64,000 nt of DNA from the sequence record PZ166176.1; one strand, given 5' to 3'. The stretch is from a phage. A program made the translations under genes and the position numbers. Shown here piece after piece: positions 3,764 to 64,000 of this stretch. Numbering within the stretch: position 1 is the stretch's first letter; every line of letters begins with the position of its first letter. The notes below the pieces were generated by a model that saw only the letters and a list, made by a program, of their open reading frames with translations, did not search any database and was not told the DNA's origin.

Positions 3764-3982
3764 TTAACAGCTACTACTGTGCCAAACGCCTTGAGAATTA
3801 ACGACGAAACCATCATCACCTTCACCATAACAAGAAGAGGATTGCCAATCTTCAAAACAGATTGCGTCATTTTCTAAACTAAGACCAAAACCAGCATCTT
3901 CAGCTTCTTTTGTAAGTTCGTCCACTAAAGCCATAATAGCTTGGGCTTTTTCAGTTAATTCTTCAACATTACGATCACTCAT
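3764..3982 (-). CDS. small protein, W-x-SSS-C tail paralog
   Basis: Start set at internal ATG (MSDRN) overlapping stop of upstream gene; C-terminus ...GVWHSSSC. Confidence 0.5.
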   Translation of the reverse strand: MSDRNVEELTEKAQAIMALVDELTKEAEDAGFGLSLENDAICFEDWQSSSCYGEGDDGFVVNSQGVWHSSSC

Positions 3983-4296
3983 TAGTATTTCTCCTCTGGT
4001 TGGAAAACTGAACGACAAGCCCACATACTAGCTTCTTTTAAATGTTTAATAGCACAACGGATTTGATCAATACGTTCGTATGTAAGATCTAATTCTTTTT
4101 CTGTGCCGTCAAAAGACCCATGATATGCTTCACAATACTCTTCCTCTAAAGCTTTGAAGATTAAACCTAAACGCTCTTCTGCATCTTTAATAGCGTTAAC
4201 CTTGCCAATCTTATCGTCAGTATGCGCCTTATAACCTTTGATATCTTCGATTCCCACTTTACCTCCTATTAACAACTTAAAGAAGATGGATGCCAA
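3982..4296 (-). CDS. hypothetical protein
   Basis: Track ORF 104 aa. Confidence 0.45.
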   Translation of the reverse strand: MASIFFKLLIGGKVGIEDIKGYKAHTDDKIGKVNAIKDAEERLGLIFKALEEEYCEAYHGSFDGTEKELDLTYERIDQIRCAIKHLKEASMWACRSVFQPEEKY

Positions 4297-6118: not shown

Positions 6119-6861
6119 TAATCCTCCTCAAGAGTTGAATAAAATTGAAGACCACCGTCCATATCGAAATAAGCAAATGTTAAGTTATTATTGAACACAG
6201 ATCCAGTATCCATATAAACACGATTCGCATTGATAATAGGTGTTTTTACATAAGAGTGTCCATGAAACACATAATCCACACCCATCACAACAGGAAGTTT
6301 CATTCCCTCTTTAGCACAATCCACCATATCTCTGTCCCACATAAGTGCTTCAGCAAAACGGTTTTCCTGTGTTTTTGTCATCTTCGAAGTGTATTCTGGA
6401 ATATCTGTTACAGGGAGATATTCCAAAGAAGACGGATACCCACCATGAATAAACGCAAGTTTCATGCCTCTGTAGTTAACAATGAGAACAACAGGTAAAT
6501 CTTCTGTCATCATTGCTAAGGCTGTAGCTCCTTCTTCACCACATTCTTCAAGGACCGTATATCCTCCATTTTGATACCAACACTCGAAGTAGCTACGATC
6601 TCCTTCCAGCATACCTTTAATCATCATGTCTTCATGATTTCCACGAATAGCGTAGCGATTGTGTTTACGAGTAAATTCTAAAACACAACGAAAGTTTTGC
6701 TTTCCACGGTCAGTAAGATCTCCTAGAGATACAACCACATCTGTATCTCGGATACCTAACTTTGCCTTTCCTTTTTCATACAAATTATAACAACCGTGTA
6801 GATCTCCAATTATAAAAAGATCTTGATCGCTTTTAACAGTAATTTCTCTGTGTATGATCAC
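6118..6861 (-). CDS. Ser/Thr protein phosphatase (calcineurin-like metallophosphoesterase)
   Basis: GDLHG, GDLTDRG, GNHE and HGH metal-binding motifs in canonical order. Confidence 0.75.
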   Translation of the reverse strand: MIIHREITVKSDQDLFIIGDLHGCYNLYEKGKAKLGIRDTDVVVSLGDLTDRGKQNFRCVLEFTRKHNRYAIRGNHEDMMIKGMLEGDRSYFECWYQNGGYTVLEECGEEGATALAMMTEDLPVVLIVNYRGMKLAFIHGGYPSSLEYLPVTDIPEYTSKMTKTQENRFAEALMWDRDMVDCAKEGMKLPVVMGVDYVFHGHSYVKTPIINANRVYMDTGSVFNNNLTFAYFDMDGGLQFYSTLEED

Positions 6862-8476: not shown

Positions 8477-8986
8477 TTAAACAAAATAAAATGGTTGAGA
8501 GAGGCCCAAACGATTCTTTGGGTCGTATACATACCAAGCGTATGCTGTCTTATCTGTTCCACCTGCAACAAACGAAGGCCGTTCTGAAAGGACTATAAGG
8601 TTTGTTGGTGGATTCTTTTGATGGAACTCTCGTCGTTTCTTTGACTCCAAGAAGCCCAACCGAAGAAGATAAATACAAACATCCGCCTCTTTTAAGCTCT
8701 TTTCCAAGAACTCCATTGCTAACTTAAATGGAGGATTTGTGATTATAATGTCGGGACGATTTTCCCATTCATGACTAAAATAATCTTTACCTTCTTCAAG
8801 TTCGCAATATTCTGAACCTTCAGGAAAATGGCGATAAATCGCTTCAGCTTCACCTCTGCAAGGTTCTGCAAAAACCCAACCTTCTTCCTTTAGATTTTTG
8901 AAATCTATAACACTAAACAAACTATTGATTGCTTTTTGCGGTGTCGGATAATAATCGCTCGTTGGGCGATCATAATCTAATGCCAT
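8477..8986 (-). CDS. DNA N6-adenine methyltransferase (small phage Dam-like type)
   Basis: YYPTPQ near N-terminus and NPPF catalytic motif (DPPY-family motif IV). Confidence 0.7.
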   Translation of the reverse strand: MALDYDRPTSDYYPTPQKAINSLFSVIDFKNLKEEGWVFAEPCRGEAEAIYRHFPEGSEYCELEEGKDYFSHEWENRPDIIITNPPFKLAMEFLEKSLKEADVCIYLLRLGFLESKKRREFHQKNPPTNLIVLSERPSFVAGGTDKTAYAWYVYDPKNRLGLSQPFYFV

Positions 8987-16090: not shown

Positions 16091-18331
16091 TCACATTTTG
16101 CAAGCTTCACAACCACCATCAGAATCTTCTTGTGCTAAAGAGTCTGCTGATTTTGTTCTACTATTAAGGTAATACAATGACTTGCCACCCAGTCTGGCAA
16201 AATTCAGAATAAACTGCATCTCAGCTTTCACTGATAAACGTCCACCTACCAATTTAGAATAATCTAGCCAAGAATCACAAGAAATTCCTTGGTCCGTGAA
16301 TTTGGTAAAGATACCATACATTTCTGCAAGATCTTTAGCCGGAGTATCCCAGGCGGATTGGTAGAACATTTTCAGTTTTTCGTAGTCTGGAACAATAAAT
16401 AATACACTACCTTTCTGACTTTGTTTATACATGATAGTATCACGAACAGGATACAGAGAGTTAGTAGTATTGCTTACCAAACTGCTGGACTCATTAGGTG
16501 CAATAGCAGCCAAGACACTGTTACGGATACCACCTTGTTCAATGATTTCAGCACGTAAGCCTTCCCAGTCCATTTTAAGATCAAAATTACCGATACTATC
16601 TACTGTTTTAGCATAAGTGTCAATTGGTAGCCAACCTTGAGGCCATTTGGTCTTATCGATCCACTCTGCATTACCTTTTTCCTTAGCCAGACGCAGAGAG
16701 GCTTTTGCCAACCAAAAGTAATGACGTTCTGCAAGTTCATGCATTAATTTTTTAGCATAAGCATCTGAATAATTTACAAAATTACTTGCCAAGTAATGCG
16801 CTAAGTTTGTAATGCCTACACCAATAGATCTACGTGCTTTAGCAGTTATTTCGTTATGTTTAAATGGATAATCCATTGTTTCAATAACGTTGTCAATTGT
16901 CAATACAGTGTAGTATGCAACATCCTCATATTCTTCAGGTAAGACACGACCAGCCACAATAGAAGATAAGAAGCATAAAGCCAATTCTTGATCTTCTGTA
17001 TTCTCACCAGTAAAGAGATCCGGCATACTGTGGAAAGCTTTAGTTGGTAAGAAGATCTCTTGACACAGGTTTGATTGATACACCGTATCCAGGAAAGGTG
17101 TATGGTTGTTAACGTTGTCAGCAAAGAACATGTAAATACGTCCTGTTTCTGCACGTTGAACAATAATCTCTGTCAGAAGATCACGAGCCTTAACAAATTT
17201 TTTCTTAATGCGACGACGGCTTACTTTGTCATAAACTGCATCAAACTCTTCTTCACTTTTATACAAAGCTTCATAAAGTTCAGGAGCATCATCACAACTA
17301 ACTAACATCCAATCTTCGTTTTTTGCTGCTCGACGCAAGAACGAACGGTTAACAACAATAGAATAATCCAGTTTGTCTACTCGTTTATCTATAGGTGTTG
17401 TTGGATTCTTCAGTCGAATCAGATCGTCGAAGTCTGGTTCAAGTATGGTAAAGGTAACTGTAGCACTACCTCCACGACTTGCTTGCTTCGAAGCTCCAAC
17501 ACTATCTTCCATCCATTTCAGATACGGAAGAAGACCACCATGAATAATACGATTATTCTTAACACCTTGACCTGTGGCACGAGTTTGAAGATTAACACCA
17601 ATACCTGCGTTATTCAACGTATACTCATGAGCTAAGTAATTAGCAATGGCTAAAGACTCTGCCGTATCGTCTGCACGGAATAAACAACAAGACGCACTTC
17701 CTTTGATTGGAGTTCGTAGAGTTGTCAGATACGGCGATGGCAGATTAATCTTAAGATCGCTAACATAAGTATAAAGTTTTTTAATATCTTCTATACGGCG
17801 TTCTTTTGGTTGGATCTCCATAACCTTCATTGCGATACCAATGAAAAGAAACTGTGGAGACTCATGCACCACATCGTTTACTGCATCTCGAATAAGATAT
17901 TTATCTACCATCTGGCGTAAAACAGAATAACCATAAGTTAGATTTTTATTATGCTTTACAATCTTACCGATTTCTTTGATCTCTTCATCAGTATAATCCA
18001 TTTTAGCCCAATGTCCACGTTCTACCATATCATGATAAAAGGTATTCAGTGAAGGGATACTGTGGTATCCCCCATGAGCCTGTTTGTAAATCATACCCAG
18101 AAGAAGTCTTCCTGCCATATCACTGTAAGCTTGTGTTTTCTTGTCAATACACGCTGCAATCATTGCTTTATGCAGATCACGTGTAGACACACCGTCATAA
18201 CACCGCTTCACAGCTTCTAATTCAATTTCAGACCAGTTTAGTTTACCTGCTGCAAATTCAGACCACTTGCGAAGTTTTTCTGGATTAAACTCCTCTGTCT
18301 TACCATTAGATTTAGTTACAAAACGAATCAA
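16091..18331 (-). CDS. nrdA: ribonucleotide reductase class Ia large subunit (R1)
   Basis: 746 aa; ATP-cone-like N-terminus, catalytic-core blocks, C-terminal redox cysteines ...GGCEACKM. Confidence 0.85.
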   Translation of the reverse strand: MIRFVTKSNGKTEEFNPEKLRKWSEFAAGKLNWSEIELEAVKRCYDGVSTRDLHKAMIAACIDKKTQAYSDMAGRLLLGMIYKQAHGGYHSIPSLNTFYHDMVERGHWAKMDYTDEEIKEIGKIVKHNKNLTYGYSVLRQMVDKYLIRDAVNDVVHESPQFLFIGIAMKVMEIQPKERRIEDIKKLYTYVSDLKINLPSPYLTTLRTPIKGSASCCLFRADDTAESLAIANYLAHEYTLNNAGIGVNLQTRATGQGVKNNRIIHGGLLPYLKWMEDSVGASKQASRGGSATVTFTILEPDFDDLIRLKNPTTPIDKRVDKLDYSIVVNRSFLRRAAKNEDWMLVSCDDAPELYEALYKSEEEFDAVYDKVSRRRIKKKFVKARDLLTEIIVQRAETGRIYMFFADNVNNHTPFLDTVYQSNLCQEIFLPTKAFHSMPDLFTGENTEDQELALCFLSSIVAGRVLPEEYEDVAYYTVLTIDNVIETMDYPFKHNEITAKARRSIGVGITNLAHYLASNFVNYSDAYAKKLMHELAERHYFWLAKASLRLAKEKGNAEWIDKTKWPQGWLPIDTYAKTVDSIGNFDLKMDWEGLRAEIIEQGGIRNSVLAAIAPNESSSLVSNTTNSLYPVRDTIMYKQSQKGSVLFIVPDYEKLKMFYQSAWDTPAKDLAEMYGIFTKFTDQGISCDSWLDYSKLVGGRLSVKAEMQFILNFARLGGKSLYYLNSRTKSADSLAQEDSDGGCEACKM

Positions 18332-20760: not shown

Positions 20761-21315
20761 CTAACTTTCAATTTCCTGCAATAGGATTTTGACTATTTGT
20801 TTACGGCGTTTTGCTACTGTGCTTTCAGGTTCTATTTTACGCTTCTTCAGCCACGCTTTATCTTTCTTAGCTCTACACAAAGCTATCGCTTCTTTTTCAG
20901 CTTTTGCTTCTTCAAAAGATATGCCTTGCTTGTCTGCATAAGCAAGAATAGAGTTGCACAATTTACAAACCATTCGCAAATCTTCTTCTTTCACATAGAT
21001 CAAACGGAAAACAAAAAGGGGAATATCCTCAAAACATTGAAGTTGTTTTGCTGCGTGAATATGATCCACTTGGAAGTCTTTCATTCCTCCTCTGTGTCCA
21101 CATATTTCGCACTCACAATTCCAAACTTGTTTTGGTTTTCCAGTTTTCTTGTCTATCATTACATTGCCGTCTTTATCTACACGATCAACTTTAAAACGCC
21201 TTGCATTGATAACCTTAATTTTATTAGGGTGTCTCATCCATGCTTTTCTAAAACATCCCCTAAGATAAGTATAAAATTCAGCTTGTGTTTTCCAGGGTGT
21301 TCCTTCACCCCACAT
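20761..21315 (-). CDS. HNH endonuclease-like zinc-binding protein
   Basis: CECEICGH ... DHIH ... CKLCN arrangement typical of HNH nucleases; start set at internal ATG (MWGEG). Confidence 0.4.
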   Translation of the reverse strand: MWGEGTPWKTQAEFYTYLRGCFRKAWMRHPNKIKVINARRFKVDRVDKDGNVMIDKKTGKPKQVWNCECEICGHRGGMKDFQVDHIHAAKQLQCFEDIPLFVFRLIYVKEEDLRMVCKLCNSILAYADKQGISFEEAKAEKEAIALCRAKKDKAWLKKRKIEPESTVAKRRKQIVKILLQEIES

Positions 21316-21384
21316 TATTTTTGGTTCACCTGCCAATATTGCTCACCTTTTTAGCTGTATATTCCCCTGGTGGGATATTATGTT

Positions 21385-32935: not shown

Positions 32936-33126
32936 TTCTTTACGTACTCCATGATTGGGGTGTGGTCGCCAGTAAGCGTAACACGGCTGTAGGACACATC
33001 TTGTGTCTTCAGTGTATCAATCCACTCTAAGAAGTGTTCTTTCGCTTCTGTGTAGTTCTGTGTGCCTTTAACAACGTGTATACCATCTAGAGTTACACGG
33101 AATACCATTTGAATAACGTCTTTCAT
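32932..33126 (-). CDS. hypothetical small protein
   Basis: Track ORF 64 aa. Confidence 0.4.
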   Translation of the reverse strand: MKDVIQMVFRVTLDGIHVVKGTQNYTEAKEHFLEWIDTLKTQDVSYSRVTLTGDHTPIMEYVKK

Positions 33127-33222
33127 TTCTTACCTCCTTTATTGTCAAAATAGCTTACCAGAATATCGTGAACCACACATAAGGCAAAAATCAGAACAAT
33201 TGTTGCCAGGACTGGATTCTCA

Positions 33223-33546
33223 CTAATCAGTGCTATCATCTTTAACCACCTCCAATTGTCTTTCGAGTTTGACCTTGTTTGAGAACTGATAATGACACAA
33301 CTTACATTGCATGTCAACAATCTGATAGTGATTTAACCCTACAATTTTAACTTCCTTTGCACCATCCCACTCCAAATACTCAAAGCCATCCAAATGATTA
33401 CTCTTGTCCAACAGGAATGCTATCTGCTGCCATTCAATCTGAATGTCATTTAAATGATATGCTGCACAGAAGATATCCTCATAGTAAAAGACGATCATTG
33501 TCATTGCTTCGTCCAGCACAACTACCTCTTGTCTTGTAAATCTCAT
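33223..33546 (-). CDS. hypothetical protein (first leftward gene after the divergent control region)
   Basis: Track ORF 107 aa. Confidence 0.45.
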   Translation of the reverse strand: MRFTRQEVVVLDEAMTMIVFYYEDIFCAAYHLNDIQIEWQQIAFLLDKSNHLDGFEYLEWDGAKEVKIVGLNHYQIVDMQCKLCHYQFSNKVKLERQLEVVKDDSTD

Positions 33547-33599
33547 TCTAGCCTCCTAAACGCGTCTCTGATGCACTTTTTATATATAAGATGATAAAT

Positions 33600-34027
33600 C
33601 ACCTTACCTAGTAAGTAAACTTGCTCTACGAGCCTCTTATGAAGCTTATGTTATAGGCTATACTATTGCTACCTGTTTAAGCAAGGTTTTTGCACACAGA
33701 AAATAATTTTTAATAAAACTCTTGACTTTTGTGTTCGAAGTATGCTACCCTAGAAATCTATTAACGAGCGCAGCGAGTTAAGGTTTTAGGTTGTTGATGT
33801 AGTACTCTGTACTCAAGTACTGTACTCCGTACTAGATTAATAATTATTAAATATTAATAATAAATAATTATTAGATCTAACAAACAGGTACAGTGTATCA
33901 GAACTGGTACGTACAGATCAACTTCTATCAATTAAAAATAAAATAATAAATTATTATAAATAATACTTGATCTATAGATCAGTATGAAGTACAGTACGGA
34001 ACATCTTAACAAGAATGGAGGTGTGCA
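33600..34027. promoter_or_regulatory. divergent intergenic control region / candidate replication origin
   Basis: No ORF; five GTACT repeats at about 33802..33833, AT-rich near-palindrome about 33838..33873, further GTAC motifs and four GATC sites (about 33874, 33916, 33969, 33977), AT-rich tract 33932..33966. Confidence 0.45.
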
Positions 34028-34213
34028 ATGATTAGCGAGAATCCGTGCAAATGGCATCATGTGCCTATTAAAGATTGTATGTCTTGTAATCCACGTTCTA
34101 TTTATAACATTGCATCTTATGATGATGACAATGTGTTAGACGATGATGAAGGCTGGGAGGATTTAGATTGGACTGGTTATGAAACCAAAAAGGATAAAAT
34201 TATTCCTAGTTGA
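34028..34213 (+). CDS. hypothetical small protein
   Basis: Track ORF 61 aa, first rightward gene. Confidence 0.4.
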   Translation: MISENPCKWHHVPIKDCMSCNPRSIYNIASYDDDNVLDDDEGWEDLDWTGYETKKDKIIPS

Positions 34214-34250
34214 CTTAAGATATCCTTCGTGCTAAACTAGAAGTGAGGAG

Positions 34251-34502
34251 ATGCCGATCACTCCCCATTTGGGGTTCGAAGGATATATGCAAAATAGCTT
34301 TTATTTTAGGTGCCGTGCTTGTAATAGGCATTTGACAAACCACTCCAGACGTGATAAAAATGGAGTCATCAAGGAATCAGACCTCTGTTCTATTTGCACA
34401 GGTTTGGCTTTTGATGATAGTCCCGAAAGGGTTTATCAGCATCAATGTATAACAGACGTTCTCGTGTCAAACTTGGTAGAGGACGAACAACTAACAGATT
34501 AG
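34251..34502 (+). CDS. small zinc-finger protein
   Basis: CRACNRH ... CSICTG cysteine pairs. Confidence 0.4.
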   Translation: MPITPHLGFEGYMQNSFYFRCRACNRHLTNHSRRDKNGVIKESDLCSICTGLAFDDSPERVYQHQCITDVLVSNLVEDEQLTD

Positions 34503-34510
34503 GAGGAACA

Positions 34511-34759
34511 ATGTCTCTATTAGAAAAACACGTGTTTGAAGATGGTAACGGCAATGCAGTTTTTCTTTTCCATCCAGAAAAATACACATCTGAAAACAAT
34601 GGTACAACTTCTATTGTAATCACTAAAGATGTTAAAGTTATTGATTTCTTGGCTCTGATGCGAGAGATGGATCTTGAAATTAATACTTTTAACGCAGAAG
34701 CTTTGGTTGTTGCTCTTCTGGAAAAGAAAGATAGTGAAGAAGTAGCAGAATATGCTTAA
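34511..34759 (+). CDS. hypothetical small protein
   Basis: Start at internal ATG (MSLLEK) after TTAGGAGGAACA. Confidence 0.4.
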   Translation: MSLLEKHVFEDGNGNAVFLFHPEKYTSENNGTTSIVITKDVKVIDFLALMREMDLEINTFNAEALVVALLEKKDSEEVAEYA

Positions 34760-34766
34760 ATAACTA

Positions 34767-34797
34767 TTGACAAACGTATCCTTCATATGTTAGGATA
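34767..34797 (+). promoter_or_regulatory. sigma70-like promoter (ctaTTGACAa ... TGtTAGGAT)
   Basis: TTGACA then extended -10-like TGtTAGGAT; same motif recurs at 35354 and 36103. Confidence 0.45.
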
Positions 34798-34807
34798 CGT
34801 TCATCAA

Positions 34808-35001
34808 GTGTGGTAACAGGGTCGTTGACTTTTGTTAAGAGGGGCTTGCACTGCGGTAGTGTTAGAGACTACTTCTTCAGAGGTTAGCTACCAAAGAGGA
34901 AAAGGAATAGTCTCGGCTCAAGAACTTTTACGCTGAAAGTTGGGCTTGGTCTTAGAGAATGTAGCGGTTCTCTACAATCGTCAGCGTCTCTGTTACCACA
35001 T
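34808..35001 (+). ncRNA. structured RNA of about 190 nt preceding the first tRNA
   Basis: 5' GTGGTAACAG (34810..34819) pairs perfectly with 3' CTGTTACCAC (34990..34999); no ORF; sits between promoter and tRNA. Confidence 0.35.
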
Positions 35002-35005
35002 TTAT

Positions 35006-35080
35006 GGCCCTGTAGCTCAATGGGAGAGCTGTCGGCTCATAACCGATAGGTAGCTGGATCGAAACCAGCCAGGGCCACCA
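35006..35080 (+). tRNA. tRNA with CAT anticodon (resembles tRNA-Ile2 / elongator Met)
   Basis: Hand-folded cloverleaf: acceptor GGCCCTG/CAGGGCC, anticodon loop CTCATAA, T-loop ATCGAAA, encoded CCA. Confidence 0.7.
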
Positions 35081-35082
35081 AC

Positions 35083-35157
35083 GTCTTTATGGTGTAATGG
35101 ATAGCACAGGAGTCTTCTAAACTCTTAGTCAAGGTTCGATTCCTTGTAAAGACACCA
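35083..35157 (+). tRNA. tRNA-Arg (TCT)
   Basis: Acceptor GTCTTTA/TAAAGAC, anticodon loop CTTCTAA, T-arm CAAGG-TTCGATT-CCTTG, CCA. Confidence 0.7.
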
Positions 35158-35158
35158 G

Positions 35159-35342
35159 AACATTTTAACATGAATTAGCTCAAGTGATTTGAACCCACTA
35201 CTGATCATGGTGGCAGAGAATGAGGCAAGTATGTCAGACATTATAAACAAAGGCCACGGTTATATTAGAAGACATAAATGCTCGAAGAGCACCGTTCGTT
35301 GAGAACGGGGGTTGGTGGAGTCACCATTCATGGTAAAATGTT
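35159..35342 (+). ncRNA. structured RNA of about 185 nt following tRNA-Arg
   Basis: 5' AACATTTTAACATGAAT pairs with 3' ATTCATGGTAAAATGTT (one mismatch); no ORF. Confidence 0.35.
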
Positions 35343-35353
35343 TTAAAAAACTA

Positions 35354-35384
35354 TTGACAACTAACATTATTTTATGTTAGATTA
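35354..35384 (+). promoter_or_regulatory. sigma70-like promoter (ctaTTGACAa ... TGtTAGATT)
   Basis: TTGACA and extended -10-like element upstream of tRNA-Ser. Confidence 0.45.
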
Positions 35385-35391
35385 TAAGTAT

Positions 35392-35482
35392 GGAAGGGCA
35401 AATCGACGTGGCGACGAAAACGGTCTTGAAAACCGCCGAGCTTGAAAGAGCCTTGGGAGTTCGACTCTCCCTCCTTCCGCCA
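35392..35482 (+). tRNA. tRNA-Ser (TGA), long variable arm
   Basis: Acceptor GGAAGGG/TCCTTCC, anticodon loop CTTGAAA, long variable arm, T-arm GGGAG-TTCGACT-CTCCC, G73-CCA; D-arm atypical. Confidence 0.55.
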
Positions 35483-35486
35483 GATT

Positions 35487-35572
35487 GGTAGATTGGTGAA
35501 ATGGTAGCCACGACAGTTTGCTAAACTGTAGTCGGAAACGGCGTGTAGGTTCGAGTCCTACATCTACCGCCA
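35487..35572 (+). tRNA. tRNA-Ser (GCT), long variable arm
   Basis: Acceptor GGTAGAT/ATCTACC, anticodon stem ACAGT/ACTGT loop TTGCTAA, variable arm AGTCGGAAACGGCGT, G73-CCA. Confidence 0.7.
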
Positions 35573-35578
35573 AATTAA

Positions 35579-35664
35579 GATGAGTTGGCTGAATGGTTTA
35601 AGCGGCGGACTGTTAATCCGTGTTCGAAAGAACGATATAGGTTCAAATCCTATACTCATCGCCA
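35579..35664 (+). tRNA. class II (long variable arm) tRNA with GTT (Asn) anticodon; identity ambiguous
   Basis: Acceptor GATGAGT/ACTCATC (7 bp), anticodon stem GCGGA/TCCGT loop CTGTTAA, variable arm GTTCGAAAGAACGAT with GTTC/GAAC stem, T-arm ATAGG-TTCAAAT-CCTAT, G73-CCA. Confidence 0.55.
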
Positions 35665-35671
35665 GAATTAT

Positions 35672-44085: not shown

Positions 44086-45087
44086 ATGCCAGCAGTAATT
44101 TTAGATCAGGTTGTAGATTTCAGCCCTATGATCGAACTTCAGGATTCCCCTGATACACTGATTGCCAGCCTGAATCTGTTCAGTGTTGACTATCATTCAA
44201 CTACCGCTATTGAAATCGGTAAAGAAAAAGCTGAAGATGCTCTGATCTCCGCTCGTGAGCGTGGTGGTGAGCGTAACTTCCTGAGCATGAAAAATCCAGA
44301 ACTGAAAGCGTTCCGCATTCCGTTCTTCCCTCTGGATAAAAACATCAAAGCTCAAGATATCCAATCTTTCCGTAGCTTTGCAATGGCAGGAATCAATGAC
44401 TCTCTGCGCACAGACGCTGAAGTTGTTAACCGCTATATGTCCCAGATTCTACGTGACGTAGCAAAAACCAAAGAGAAAATCTTTGCAGAAGCAGTTATGG
44501 GTCGTGCCTATAACGGCGTAGGTGGTGCAGCTAACTCTGCATACAACTGGTATACCGAATGGGGTGCTACCCAGAAATCTGTTGCTGTAGACTTTGCTTC
44601 TACCACTATTTCTCCAGCAGCCACTATCGAGAAAGAAGCTCGTGCTTACATCATCGATACTAAACAAGATGGCTCTACCGCTACTCGTATCGTAGCTCTG
44701 TGTTCTCGTGAATTTTTCGCATCTCTGGTTAACTCTCCATTTGTTCGCCAGGCGTATCAGTATTTCCAGGGAACTCCTAACCTTCTGCGTGACCGCCTTA
44801 GCGGTAACATGGATGTTCAGGTGTTCGAATGGAACGGTGTAACTTACATTGAAGATATCCACGGTAACATCCCTGCTGGTGAAGCATATGTTCTGCCTAT
44901 GGGTATCGAAGGTATGTTCCAGGCGCACTACGCTCCTGCGGATACTCCAGAACTGGCTAACACCCAGGCTCGTGAACTGTATACCTTCATGATCAGCCAG
45001 CACCGCACTATTCAGCTTCAGTCTGAATTCTCGCTGCTCGCAGTTAACACCCGTCCAGAACTGGTAGTTAAACTGACTACGGCTTAA
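44086..45087 (+). CDS. major capsid protein (lambda gpE-like family)
   Basis: 333 aa; C-terminal LANTQARELYTF parallels lambda gpE LGNTQARGLRTY; followed by strong terminator. Confidence 0.75.
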   Translation: MPAVILDQVVDFSPMIELQDSPDTLIASLNLFSVDYHSTTAIEIGKEKAEDALISARERGGERNFLSMKNPELKAFRIPFFPLDKNIKAQDIQSFRSFAMAGINDSLRTDAEVVNRYMSQILRDVAKTKEKIFAEAVMGRAYNGVGGAANSAYNWYTEWGATQKSVAVDFASTTISPAATIEKEARAYIIDTKQDGSTATRIVALCSREFFASLVNSPFVRQAYQYFQGTPNLLRDRLSGNMDVQVFEWNGVTYIEDIHGNIPAGEAYVLPMGIEGMFQAHYAPADTPELANTQARELYTFMISQHRTIQLQSEFSLLAVNTRPELVVKLTTA

Positions 45088-61534: not shown

Positions 61535-63481
61535 ATGTCAACTACAATTACTAATTTACCCGAAACATCAAAAGTTAATGGTTCTGATTACCTAGTTTTA
61601 GACCAATCTGATAAGACCGTTAAAAGCACAGTTTCTAACTTTCTTGCTGACACTGGGGTGGTTTTAGCCACCCAGTTGAAAGATACAAATGGAGCAGATT
61701 TAATACAATCCTCAAATGGTAATACTGTTCAGGAAGAGTTGAATAACAATCTTCTTAATGATCGTGAACAGTGGTGTCGTAGTCTTGCTGAGGCAGGGTT
61801 AACCCTTGTCAACGGTAGCTTTGAAGAAGGCGCTACATTAAATAATAAGACCGATGCTGTTTGGTATATTGCAGGCGGTCAGTGTTATTCATGGGATGGT
61901 GCACTACCTAAAGAAGTTCCAAATGGCTCAACTCCAGAAACATCTGGTGGTGTTGGTCTGGGTGCGTGGGTTAGTGTTGGTGATGCATCGTTGCGCACTG
62001 AACTTTCCTCTTTATCAGGGGCTAATCTTGTTGGGTATAGCGTTTCCATGAGATATAATGAAGAGACTGTTGGGTGGATGTTAGAAAATCTCACCGACAG
62101 AGCTTTATCATCAAGTGATTTCCCTGGAGACGATGCCGGAGAACAAATAAATAACGGTCTTGATTTTTTACGCTCCCAGAATGAGAAATATAGACAAGGG
62201 GGAACATTAAACCTACCCAGAGAAACACTGAATGTATCGACACCGATTACACTCGACAGAACTCCAAGCGGTGCGCCAGATGAAAATGATGAATATACAA
62301 TATCTGGCTCTGGAAAAGGAGGGACAGTACTGATAGCGGGTAATAGCTTCCCACCAGATAAAGCGGTTTTAACAACTAACTCTGCTAATGGTAATGCGGT
62401 TCAAGGTTTTAAATTAAAAGACTTTTCCATCAGGGGTGGCAAAAACGGACTTCGTATTGAAACCGCATCAAGAAGTATAATAGACAGCATCAAAGTTTCG
62501 GGATCAGGTTCGGACGGTATTTATGTAGGTAATAGCTGGGTCAATCTTTATAGTCAGGTGCTTGTAGATTCAAGCGGTGGTAATGGAATTACGTTCGATA
62601 ATAGTCTACAAAAAACAAGCACAACAGTACTTTCAGGATACCAGTTAAAAAACAAGGGGTCAGGTTGGGATTTTGGTTTTATGAACTATTCAGTGGCAAT
62701 TGCCACTGCTTCAGATCAGAACTCACAACATGGCTATAAAATATCAAGGTCGGAAGGATTTGTTCTTATATCTCCGGGAGCGGAAAGCAACGGGGGTGCT
62801 GGTATATTAGCTGAGGCATCAACATCTTTAGGGGAAAACAAGAGCGTCCTAATTCAAGGAGCTTTTTGCCACAATAATAATAAGATAGGTACTTACGCGA
62901 ATCTTTTATATGCGGTGAGTACTGCTAACACAATAAACCGTGTAAAAATAACAGATAGCACAGCACATTCCAGCCCTGTAGGTTCTCCAGATGTTGTTGC
63001 TGATGGGAACGAATGCGTTGTCACAATAGATAACTGCGTACTACCTAACGGCTGGGAATCCAGAAATGGTGGATATATTGACTGGGTTCATCATACCCTA
63101 TATGTACAGAAACCAGGAATCACAGGGGCAACAGCCATATGCAACTTAAGAGGAACTCAGGGGCACGGTAGAAATGAAGCTTCTGCTTCTGATAGTTTTG
63201 CTGGGGAAGTAACCATAGTAGCAAGTCCATTAGCGCCTTCAACAGCGACAAGACGACTTGCTATCTATAAACTTTTTATTTGCGTAGCAGCGGATACCGG
63301 CGTTCAATGCGAAGTGATAAAACAATTGGGTTACGTATCTGGAAATGTTCCAGGTTCGCCAAGTTTCACATGGAGCATCGGTTCATCTCATGAATTGATA
63401 GCAACCCCAATAGGGTCTACAGCCGGAACGTTCTATTTTGAAATCACAACGGATTCGCAAGTTGTAGCCCTCAAAAGATAA
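61535..63481 (+). CDS. tail fibre / tailspike with parallel beta-helix-like repeats
   Basis: Repetitive Gly/Ser/Asn-rich rungs (GSGSDGIYVGNS, GGNGITFDNS). Confidence 0.45.
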   Translation: MSTTITNLPETSKVNGSDYLVLDQSDKTVKSTVSNFLADTGVVLATQLKDTNGADLIQSSNGNTVQEELNNNLLNDREQWCRSLAEAGLTLVNGSFEEGATLNNKTDAVWYIAGGQCYSWDGALPKEVPNGSTPETSGGVGLGAWVSVGDASLRTELSSLSGANLVGYSVSMRYNEETVGWMLENLTDRALSSSDFPGDDAGEQINNGLDFLRSQNEKYRQGGTLNLPRETLNVSTPITLDRTPSGAPDENDEYTISGSGKGGTVLIAGNSFPPDKAVLTTNSANGNAVQGFKLKDFSIRGGKNGLRIETASRSIIDSIKVSGSGSDGIYVGNSWVNLYSQVLVDSSGGNGITFDNSLQKTSTTVLSGYQLKNKGSGWDFGFMNYSVAIATASDQNSQHGYKISRSEGFVLISPGAESNGGAGILAEASTSLGENKSVLIQGAFCHNNNKIGTYANLLYAVSTANTINRVKITDSTAHSSPVGSPDVVADGNECVVTIDNCVLPNGWESRNGGYIDWVHHTLYVQKPGITGATAICNLRGTQGHGRNEASASDSFAGEVTIVASPLAPSTATRRLAIYKLFICVAADTGVQCEVIKQLGYVSGNVPGSPSFTWSIGSSHELIATPIGSTAGTFYFEITTDSQVVALKR

Positions 63482-63487
63482 AAACAA

Positions 63488-63510
63488 CCCCGCTTCGGCG
63501 GGGGGTTCTT
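63488..63510 (+). terminator. terminator-like hairpin after tail fibre gene
   Basis: CCCCGC-ttcg-GCGGGG hairpin followed by GGTTCTT. Confidence 0.45.
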
Positions 63511-63530
63511 AGAAAAACAAAGAGGTACTT

Positions 63531-63842
63531 ATGAACGAGATGTTCTCACAAGGTGGTAAAGGTTCAACTGGAATCTTAACCAATAAACAAGCAGTAGCCC
63601 GTCACTTTGGAGTTAAACAATCTGAGGTTGTTTACTTCTCAGTTGGTGCACTGCTTGATGGGTACAAAGTTATCTATGATAAGGAGACGCAAAGGGCGTA
63701 TTCCCTACCTGCTGATATTGCCCCAGGTACTATTGCCATTAGTCTTAGTGCTGCCGGAGTATTAGTTCACTCTGCGGGTAATGTGGACCTTGGGGAATTA
63801 GCTGTATCTCGTGATTTAAAAAGTAATGAGAACGCACTATGA
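63531..63842 (+). CDS. hypothetical protein
   Basis: Track ORF 103 aa. Confidence 0.4.
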   Translation: MNEMFSQGGKGSTGILTNKQAVARHFGVKQSEVVYFSVGALLDGYKVIYDKETQRAYSLPADIAPGTIAISLSAAGVLVHSAGNVDLGELAVSRDLKSNENAL

Positions 63843-64000
63843 GAAAATTTTTAATAGGTATGTTCTGTACATATCCTGATAATAAAGTCAGTTCTACGAA
63901 AGTCTGGAACGCTGTAGGCATGTCGGTTATGACAGGCATGTTTATCTTTTTAGGAATAGAAAAAGAAATTCCTGAATGGATGGGTTGGGCTTTTGTTTTC
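63839..64000 (+). CDS. small membrane protein, 5' part (runs off window end)
   Basis: ATG overlapping upstream stop (ATGA); MRKFLIGMFC...VGMSVMTGMFIFLGI hydrophobic segment. Confidence 0.3.
   Translation, partial: MRKFLIGMFCTYPDNKVSSTKVWNAVGMSVMTGMFIFLGIEKEIPEWMGWAFVF

Follow-up and report, generated by a model that had tools for sequence, protein, structure and literature searches.

In the 64,000-nucleotide stretch of phage DNA analysed here (record PZ166176.1; hereafter the window), a gene-free interval at positions 33547-34027 lies between genes that run leftward and genes that run rightward. Our analysis indicates that this interval probably serves a phAPEC8-like phage as divergent early promoter region and leader, with a block of GTACT repeats as a lineage-specific add-on. 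A first-pass annotation of the same DNA had described a divergent control region or early switch at this place, and the orientation of the two gene blocks, together with conserved promoter-like elements facing both ways, supports that description. Judging from its sequence, the source phage is a phAPEC8-like E. coli phage and belongs to the genus Phapecoctavirus of the subfamily Stephanstirmvirinae; the 2.5 kb around the interval are 95-99.8% identical to those of ~65 phAPEC8-like phages, whose genomes measure ~150 kb, and the intergenic interval itself is 95-99% identical in ~65 Phapecoctavirus records. Phages of the phAPEC8 and phi92 types are widely isolated and have been put forward as therapeutic agents against pathogenic E. 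coli and Klebsiella, and the interval supplies elements that can be put to the test, namely three candidate promoters, a hairpin cassette present twice per genome and boxes that bear GATC sites.

The interval is bordered by the start codons of a minus-strand open reading frame (ORF) of 107 aa and a plus-strand ORF of 61 aa. Its extent had been given as about 430 bp, from 33600 to 34027; the right-hand end was correct, while the left-hand end properly lies at 33547. Among the ORFs of the window with at least 150 aa, all those left of 33.5 kb are on the minus strand and all those to the right are on the plus strand, barring three shadow ORFs that overlap longer ORFs of the opposite strand. In annotated relatives, the leftward block encodes DNA ligase, exonucleases, ribonucleotide reductase, thymidylate synthase, methyltransferases and RNA ligase, and the rightward block comprises three small ORFs, 10 tRNA genes, spanin, terminase and structural genes. 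ORF orientations and annotated relatives thus bear out the earlier statement that the interval parts a leftward from a rightward block.

Promoter-like elements on both strands

The junction between the two gene blocks was compared in phiWec179/190, an IMG/VR contig, phi92, Klebsiella phage FKP3 and Citrobacter phage Tr1, the junctions of phi92, FKP3 and Tr1 being located through the 107-aa flanking protein (33-48% identical). Hexamers resembling −35 and −10 elements at a spacing of 17-18 bp were found on both strands, and the alignments showed that these hexamers are kept while the surrounding sequence diverges, two features of a divergent sigma-70 promoter region. On the leftward side, the candidate promoter P_L (coordinates of this and all other elements are listed in Table 1) has a −10 block, GGTGATTTATCATC, that was found by eye to be conserved in phiWec, phi92, Tr1 and FKP3. 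A second leftward −10 element appears to be a relic, since phiWec179/190 carry TGcTATAGT at this site, upstream of an extra 70-aa leftward gene that lies within their intergenic region and is lacking in this phage.

On the rightward side, two candidate promoters, P1 and P2, are arranged in tandem. The P1 pattern TTGAC..TGCTANNCT has two matches in the window against 0.05 expected, and all Stephanstirmvirinae lineages examined have kept P1 as TTGAC(A/T)-N17/18-TG(C)TACCCTA between diverging flanks. The −35 element of P2 contains an invariant TTGA in a six-sequence alignment, and its equivalents in phi92 and phiWec read TTGACT-17/18-TAGAGT. In this phage one GATC site lies in the −35 element of P2 and another in its spacer, the latter being present in four of five lineages. 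The first-pass annotation had also noted an AT-rich, unwinding-like tract, and the interval does contain the most AT-rich DNA of the window, in pure-AT runs of 38 and 36 bp (the two most AT-rich 40-mer locations, with 39 of 40 letters A or T, are 33818-33894 and 33910-33991). The run proximal to P2 has counterparts in the other lineages, where sequences and alignment revealed a pure-AT run of 16-35 nt directly upstream of P2, and its placement is that of an UP element and not of an independent unwinding element. A scan found no terminator-like site between P1 and the 61-aa ORF, and further TTGACA-type promoters follow downstream at 34210, 34332, 34767 and 35354. A second promoter of the TGCTAnnCT type, TTGACT-17-TGcTAAACT, lies within 34210-34286, and a perfect 10-bp inverted repeat, ATATCCTTCG / CGAAGGATAT (34220-34229 and 34277-34286), spans the spacer of this 34210 promoter and the start of the next ORF.

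From these sequences we infer that P_L, P1 and P2 are active as promoters and how far their transcripts extend. Leftward transcription by the host sigma-70 RNA polymerase would begin at P_L and enter the block of nucleotide-metabolism and replication genes, and rightward transcription would begin at the tandem P1 and P2. P1 would work as an extended −10 promoter, with the first 10-30 transcribed bases folding as a small invariant hairpin, and its transcripts would cross a leader of ~270 nt, enter the 61-aa ORF and continue in the direction of the tRNA array. P2, ~245 bp downstream of P1, would be served by the UP-element-like AT tract upstream of it and would carry GATC inside its core. Such an arrangement resembles the early regions of T7 (A1-A3), T5 and lambda (pL/pR), which likewise consist of a gene-free, AT-rich interval at a strand switch with hexamers spaced by 17-18 bp, an extended −10 TG, an AT tract in UP position and tandem promoters. 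Unlike those sigma-70 early regions, the interval combines the invariant −10 TACCCTA of P1 with an invariant transcribed hairpin, in a cassette that occurs only twice per genome. If the interval is only a promoter hub, it is an ordinary one, yet it would be useful for annotation and for phage engineering.

The GTACT block of core Phapecoctavirus

Five GTACT copies within ~32 bp, more GTAC motifs in inverted arrangement (33887-33920 and 33977-34002) and a near-palindromic AT tract had been singled out by the first-pass annotation, and all of them were found in the sequence. The five direct copies follow each other with start-to-start spacings of 7, 8, 5 and 7. The AT near-palindrome (33838-33873) consists of two 18-nt arms with 89% complementarity, and as single-stranded DNA it folds with −6.2 kcal/mol (z = −2.6), which is moderately above chance. 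Across the window GTAC is avoided 4.4-fold, with 51 sites observed versus ~224 expected, and 10 of these 51 sites fall within 33802-33998. GTAC density amounts to 20.8 per kb in the interval versus 0.65 per kb elsewhere, and the Poisson probability of at least 10 GTAC sites in 200 bp is ~3e-16.

The multi-lineage alignment revealed that the GTACT run and the AT palindrome constitute an insertion of ~70 bp that is present only in core Phapecoctavirus, the position of the block being a gap in all other aligned lineages. The GTACT repeats are absent from phiWec179/190, phi92, FKP3 and Tr1, despite shared flanking genes and architecture; the intergenic region of phiWec has no GTAC at all, and in those of phi92, FKP3 and Tr1 the motif is found at one to three dispersed places. 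Differences also exist inside the genus: in dw-ec, a 13-nt deletion takes out two GTACT units, in phAPEC8 one unit reads GCACT, and anhysbys has lost one middle site. The largest change was found in BI-EHEC, recorded as a plaque-forming phage, in which 9 of the 10 GTAC sites of the cluster are changed to ATAC or GTAT. Some of these changes may be errors, as BI-EHEC was assembled from nanopore reads alone. The explanation that the BI-EHEC changes are nanopore errors at a modified motif was nevertheless partly withdrawn, since EF1-1 or DIJ07P1 show five of the GTAC changes that BI-EHEC has outside the cluster, and for the same reason the turnover of GTAC in the genus is largely real. An AAGGTTT(T) unit at 33778-33792, directly 3′ of the P1 hairpin, also varies in copy number in the genus, with three copies in anhysbys and one extra copy in UP17 and Ro121lw.

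At the scale of the whole window, GGCC, CCGG and CTAG are low in the same way as the 4.4-fold under-represented GTAC. Between close relatives, GTAC and GGCC sites differ in 33-49% of cases versus 3-11% for other tetramers, mostly by single transitions; comparison of EF1-1 with the window, for instance, gave 5 differing GTAC sites out of 15, against 3-11% for other tetramers. To judge from these sequences, the loss of GTAC and GGCC among relatives looks like an ongoing purging of restriction sites. One segment, 62327-63867, is unlike the remaining window in that it holds ten GTAC in 1.5 kb, near the unbiased expectation, and it may be a recently acquired or exchanged gene segment.

The GTACT block is linked to P2 by an imperfect inverted repeat, the right arm of which overlaps the spacer and the −10 element of P2 and contains two minus-strand GTACT copies. 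In the predicted fold of the P1 leader RNA, the two arms (33817-33838 and 33977-33998) pair with each other, with a minimum free energy of −60.3 kcal/mol (z = −3.6) that none of 200 shuffled sequences equalled. The GTAC-bearing form of the P2 −10 element is, moreover, confined to the lineage that carries the GTACT block. We take the block to be functional because of the inverted repeat and its fold, the GTAC form of the P2 −10 element in the same lineage and the better retention of the cluster sites. Core Phapecoctavirus would have gained the ~70-bp insertion inside the leader, and most likely the block, together with the two inverted GTACT copies on the P2 −10 element, is a regulatory add-on of this lineage that modulates P2 or the leader, either through operator-like sites for a factor that recognises GTAC(T) or as a long stem in the P1 transcript. 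A TrpR operator was considered and rejected. GTACT and AGTAC correspond to TrpR operator half-sites, whose consensus we take to be GTACT-N8-AGTAC, an 18-bp palindrome; the GTACT...AGTAC pairs found here span 19 bp (N9; 33802/33816) and 12 bp (33809/33816), and the GTACTAG at 33829 has no right half.

An alternative is that the block and the AT palindrome are a functionally neutral product of slippage or insertion in a tolerant leader, where only the conserved promoters matter. This would account for the restriction of the block to one lineage, for the variable copy number both in the block and in the adjacent AAGGTTT(T) repeat, and for the fact that BI-EHEC forms plaques with its GTAC sites mutated. 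However, ten GTAC sites are improbable by drift, given the 4.4-fold avoidance and the fast turnover of GTAC; the P2 −10 element gained its GTACT copies in the same lineage; and the BI-EHEC sites, known from nanopore reads only, may partly be base-calling errors. We regard a neutral insertion as quite unlikely. Whatever maintains it, the GTAC cluster offers a clean natural test of what holds restriction-type sites in a genome that is losing them.

Several observations weigh against a plain divergent promoter and leader region. Both rightward promoters fall below the threshold of a simple sigma-70 consensus scan, P1 because its −10 element matches at only 3 of 6 positions and P2 because its matches total 8 of 12, and no paper on transcription, promoters or origins of this phage group was found in the literature that was searched. 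The RNA-stem idea is weakened by phAPEC8, which has a non-compensated change in the stem of the inverted repeat. GTAC sites of the cluster differ in ~5% of comparisons versus ~23% for non-cluster sites, on small numbers, and the fact that 10 GTAC sites persist although the genome purges this motif points to a function, which the promoter and leader interpretation does not name. Finally, the conservation of TACCCTA and of the 13-nt core of the hairpin downstream of P1 exceeds what sigma-70 needs, which implies that the unit formed by P1 and the hairpin does something besides starting RNA.

The P1-hairpin cassette

This unit was absent from the first-pass annotation, and nothing else in the interval interests us as much. 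P1 and the hairpin are kept together in the window, phiWec, phi92, FKP3, Tr1 and the IMG/VR relatives. Across lineages, a 13-mer, CGAGCG-N-AGCGAG, begins 10-14 nt after the P1 −10 element, and in 13 distinct sequences it is invariant save for the loop base or bases (AT at the second Phapecoctavirus site, and otherwise A or C among the phage and island sequences that were compared). The core is built from a C:G pair, tandem G.A/A.G pairs, two GC pairs (GC/GC) and a GNA loop, and the outer stem covaries: pair 9-24 is CG in 6 sequences and AU in 5, and pair 7-26 is UA in 5, CG in 4 and UG in 4. In the hairpin alignment 83.5% of cells are paired, versus 32-50% when the partners are slid against each other. 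The nearest-neighbour energy of the hairpin is unremarkable (z = 0).

The core contains the mini-hairpin motif GCGNAGC/GCGNNAGC, here as GCGCAGC at 33768-33774. This motif is reported at the primase-dependent initiation sites (complementary-strand origins) of G4, St-1 and alpha3, and also at RSF1010 ssiA and in the early promoters of N4, and standard energies do not single it out in general (PMC13037366, a 2026 review). As in the mini-hairpin DNA described by Hirao and co-workers (PMC13037366), the variable positions are confined to the loop N or NN: this phage has GCGCAGC, its relatives have GCGAAGC, and the second Phapecoctavirus site has GCGATAGC. Unlike the bare mini-hairpin, the motif here lies downstream of a sigma-70-type promoter, framed by C-GA...GA-G and by an outer stem that covaries, and, as read from the sequence, it forms only on the top, non-template strand.

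Exactly two P1-hairpin cassettes per genome were found in 135 records of the subfamily. The second copy in ESCO13 corresponds to a place ~6 kb past the left edge of the window. In phi92-like and Klebsiella phages, the second cassette is followed by more hairpins, a structured 5′ untranslated region (UTR) and a gene for a small membrane protein, while in Phapecoctavirus it runs antisense into the gene of a 69-aa hydrophobic, small membrane protein. The second site behaves as a promoter cassette, like an ordinary promoter with a 5′-UTR. A related cassette was also found directly after a tyrosine-integrase gene in the chromosome of Citrobacter sp. OP27 (positions 3950-4160 of the locus), in a Buttiauxella metagenome-assembled genome (MAG) and in an IMG/VR contig (4700-4870). 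These island cassettes share an additional TTTCATGTTAGTCATGAAAG hairpin; an endonuclease-VII-like protein is encoded in the Citrobacter island and the IMG/VR contig, and a P4-type primase in the latter. Given this satellite-like layout, the integrase islands may be satellites of Stephanstirmvirinae phages.

Outside these settings, the bare core hairpin is part of GTCATTCCGAGCGNAGCGAGGAATC, a widespread bacterial repeat resembling repetitive extragenic palindromes (REP-like), often in inverted pairs; a family of environmental viral contigs (IMG/VR) likewise carries it, as an inverted pair that precedes the terminase gene. No Rfam family covers the core hairpin in the bacterial loci. Because it is common in REP-like repeats, the hairpin alone is not diagnostic of any one function. 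Most pattern matches outside the subfamily in IMG/VR and GTDB were discarded as unrelated (a levivirus, the bacterial REP-like repeat), and those in a Planctomycetaceae MAG and in Desulfovibrio cuneatus proved to be multi-copy repeats that give no evidence of homology.

In lambda, nutL and nutR each combine boxA with a boxB hairpin, so that there are two per genome, with a short hairpin just past an early promoter. By analogy, the cassette shares with nut the two copies and a conserved hairpin with variable stem flanks past an early promoter; unlike nut, it has no sequence similarity to boxA or boxB, and no N-like protein was identified. A broader alternative to the promoter and leader region is that P1 and the hairpin form an undescribed phage control cassette that satellite-like islands have copied, as a transcription-primed replication start or as the target of a phage factor through which a satellite senses its helper, with the GTAC cluster as a lineage-specific regulatory layer. 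We put this forward tentatively, as an unlikely interpretation. Should the cassette prove to be an origin or a helper-sensing switch, it would define the replication start of the subfamily or its parasitism by satellites.

Replication and packaging signals, and neighbouring features

The cassette gives rise to a specific form of origin hypothesis, in which replication is primed by transcription: the P1 transcript would invade the duplex, the mini-hairpin on the displaced strand would resist single-stranded DNA-binding protein and mark the entry of primase or helicase as a priming signal, the AT tracts would unwind, and the second cassette would be a second origin. The candidate promoter P1 points into the most AT-rich DNA of the window within 80-200 bp, and the mini-hairpin forms on the non-template strand only, with a motif reported at primase-dependent initiation sites (PMC13037366). 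The presence of two cassettes per genome, the occurrence of the cassette in islands that bear integrase and primase and a cumulative GC-skew minimum in the interval are also consistent with it. T4 oriF and oriG share a promoter module, and the interval resembles these origins, the T7 primary origin and ColE1 in that a candidate promoter leads into unwinding-prone AT-rich DNA and each genome holds two related modules. Unlike in those systems, the second module has no AT-rich unwinding tract and leads instead into a structured leader and a small gene. The core hairpin, being common in bacterial REP-like repeats, does not diagnose an origin. Nor does the skew help: the cumulative GC-skew minimum does lie at ~34 kb, but it coincides exactly with the switch in gene orientation, which makes it uninterpretable with respect to replication, and no island of reversed gene orientation in the window separates the effects of replication and transcription. 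The same confounding of skew by transcription has been reported for rV5 (PMC3606486). Taking both sides together, we see a transcription-primed origin as a possible but unlikely function of the interval.

Four GATC sites within ~110 bp had also been taken as a feature of the interval. All four are present, whereas the cluster alone is not significant, as ~0.8 windows of such density are expected per 64 kb and an equal one exists at 6717-6819. GATC is not depleted in the window (274 observed versus 224 expected), its density in the interval is about twofold the background (8.3 versus 4.3 per kb), and the number of sites in the interval ranges from 1 to 6 across lineages. Some of the sites lie in conserved boxes, and GATC-bearing boxes of the GATCTAACAGAC and TAACAGATCT types are common to the compared lineages. 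Box 1 has equivalents in phi92, L017 and Tr1 (GATCTAACAGAC) and, twice, in phiWec (GATCT(A/T)AAAGAC); box 2 is related to TAACAGATCTGCTCTATA of phiWec and Tr1. We infer regulatory roles for the GATC sites, as for the GTACT and hairpin elements. The N6-adenine methyltransferase that the first-pass annotation had attributed to the phage is probably the 169-aa ORF at 8477-8986, which has an NPPF motif and matches phrog_799. Searches of Pfam, NCBIfam and PDB with this ORF gave no match. The GATC cluster at 6717-6819 lies near this ORF.

A single exact DnaA-box consensus match was found in the interval. Since chance alone would give ~1.5 matches in 481 bp when one mismatch is tolerated, it is no evidence of a DnaA-dependent origin. 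The interval holds neither a cluster of DnaA boxes nor a site for IHF. An oriC-like origin controlled by Dam and SeqA was rejected, as GATC is not strongly over-represented, there is one DnaA box and an equal GATC cluster exists elsewhere in the window.

The first-pass annotation had read the GTACT copies as iterons of an origin, bound by a phage initiator beside an AT-rich unwinding element and GATC sites that set the timing. Direct repeats next to an AT tract, with GATC nearby, are indeed reminiscent of lambda ori, phage P1 oriR and plasmid Rep-iteron origins, the GATC sites are enriched, if modestly, and the cluster is kept in most of the genus. But known iterons measure 17-22 bp and are phased with the helix, whereas the GTACT units are 5 bp long with irregular spacings of 5-8 bp, and they are absent from the sister lineages phiWec179/190, phi92, FKP3 and Tr1, so that they are not the iterons of a conserved origin. 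Furthermore, only one of the ten GTAC sites is left in BI-EHEC, the two flanking genes, which match only PHROGs without an assigned function, show no recognisable initiator, just one DnaA box is present, and GATC reaches 8 per kb, compared with ~45 per kb in oriC. These data do not support an iteron origin, and we consider it very improbable.

The interval might alternatively hold a packaging signal or genome terminus, either a Dam-controlled pac site like that of phage P1 or a short terminal repeat. The GATC cluster lies ~4.5 kb upstream of the terminase gene, the assembly of nieznany breaks inside the interval, and a 342-bp terminal repeat has been reported for a phi92-like relative (PMC12210895). 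Nevertheless, this 342-bp terminal repeat, that of BME3, lies in a different, non-homologous non-coding region, the record starts of relatives follow annotation conventions rather than this site, and the GATC count varies from 1 to 6 between lineages. The pac site of phage P1 consists of clustered TGATC(A/G) hexamers that flank the cleavage site, and with contexts AGATCT, AGATCA and TGATCT none of the four GATC sites fits this hexamer. A role in packaging is therefore extremely improbable. The published nieznany assembly (MN850598) begins and ends within this intergenic region; instead of a true end, the break may mark poor coverage or an assembly error in the AT-rich repeats, and as evidence for a genome end it was set aside as uninformative.

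Table 1. Features of the interval and related loci (positions in the window unless another record is named; +, rightward strand; −, leftward strand)
Feature	Position	Strand	Sequence or remark
Gene-free divergent interval	33547-34027	both	from ORF list; no coding sequence here in ESCO13 annotation
P_L, candidate leftward promoter	33591-33619	−	TTTACT-17-TATCAT; upstream of 107-aa gene; consensus scan 9/12
Putative relic second leftward −10	33657-33662	−	TATAGC; from comparison with phiWec
DnaA-box exact consensus match	33688-33696	+	TTTTGCACA
P1, candidate rightward promoter	33722-33727 (−35); 33743-33744 (TG); 33746-33751 (−10)	+	TTGACT, 18-nt spacer, TACCCT
Conserved hairpin	33761-33781	+	stem TTAAC/GTTAA round core CGAGCGCAGCGAG (33765-33777); ~10-30 nt past P1
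Five direct GTACT copies	33802-33833	+	starts 33802, 33809, 33817, 33822, 33829
Left arm of imperfect inverted repeat	33817-33838		GTACTGTACTCCGTACTAGAT; partner 33977-33998
Distal AT tract	33836-33873		pure A/T near-palindrome, 38 bp; inside lineage-specific insertion
Box 1	33874-33887	+	GATCTAACAAACAG, of conserved GATCTAACAGAC type
GATC sites	33874, 33916, 33969, 33977		contexts AGATCT, AGATCA, TGATCT, AGATCA
Box 2	33888-33922		segment holding box 2, TACAGATCAAC, and three GTAC sites (33888, 33907, 33911)
Further GTAC sites	33888, 33907, 33911, 33989, 33994		last two are GTACT on minus strand
Proximal AT tract	33930-33965		pure A/T, 36 bp; directly upstream of P2 −35; UP-element position
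P2, candidate rightward promoter	33967-33995	+	−35 TTGATC (33967-33972), 17-nt spacer, −10 TACAGT (33990-33995)
Right arm of imperfect inverted repeat	33977-33998		GATCAGTATGAAGTACAGTAC; overlaps P2 spacer and −10; two minus-strand GTACT
107-aa ORF	33223-33546	−	left flank; AGGAGG ribosome-binding site
61-aa ORF, phrog_26411	34028-34213	+	first rightward gene; GGAGG ribosome-binding site from 34017
Shadow ORFs	20797-21354, 43077-43643, 44449-45003		overlap longer opposite-strand ORFs; ORF orientation survey
Methyltransferase-like ORF, 169 aa	8477-8986	−	NPPF motif, phrog_799
Second cassette copy	ESCO13 16317-16377		~6 kb past left window edge

Regarding the neighbourhood of the interval, the 107-aa and 61-aa flanking proteins matched only PHROGs without an assigned function, and the AlphaFold2 model of the 107-aa protein is unusable (predicted local distance difference test, pLDDT, 42). 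The features annotated as 'repeat_region' in nepoznato, anhysbys and tuntematon were dismissed, being merely 55-bp automatic calls on the AT tracts. An Rfam scan of 33000-37200 returned only tRNAs and weak matches outside the interval, and none within 33547-34027 at E ≤ 1. One of the weak matches, RyhB-like and just past the last tRNA (36797-36851, plus strand; 29 bits versus a gathering score of 55), is probably due to chance. Inside the tRNA array, the sequence at 35392-35478 (plus strand) matched the Rfam tRNA-Sec model with 37 bits, below the gathering score, and was not called by ARAGORN; it may be a degenerate or unusual tRNA.

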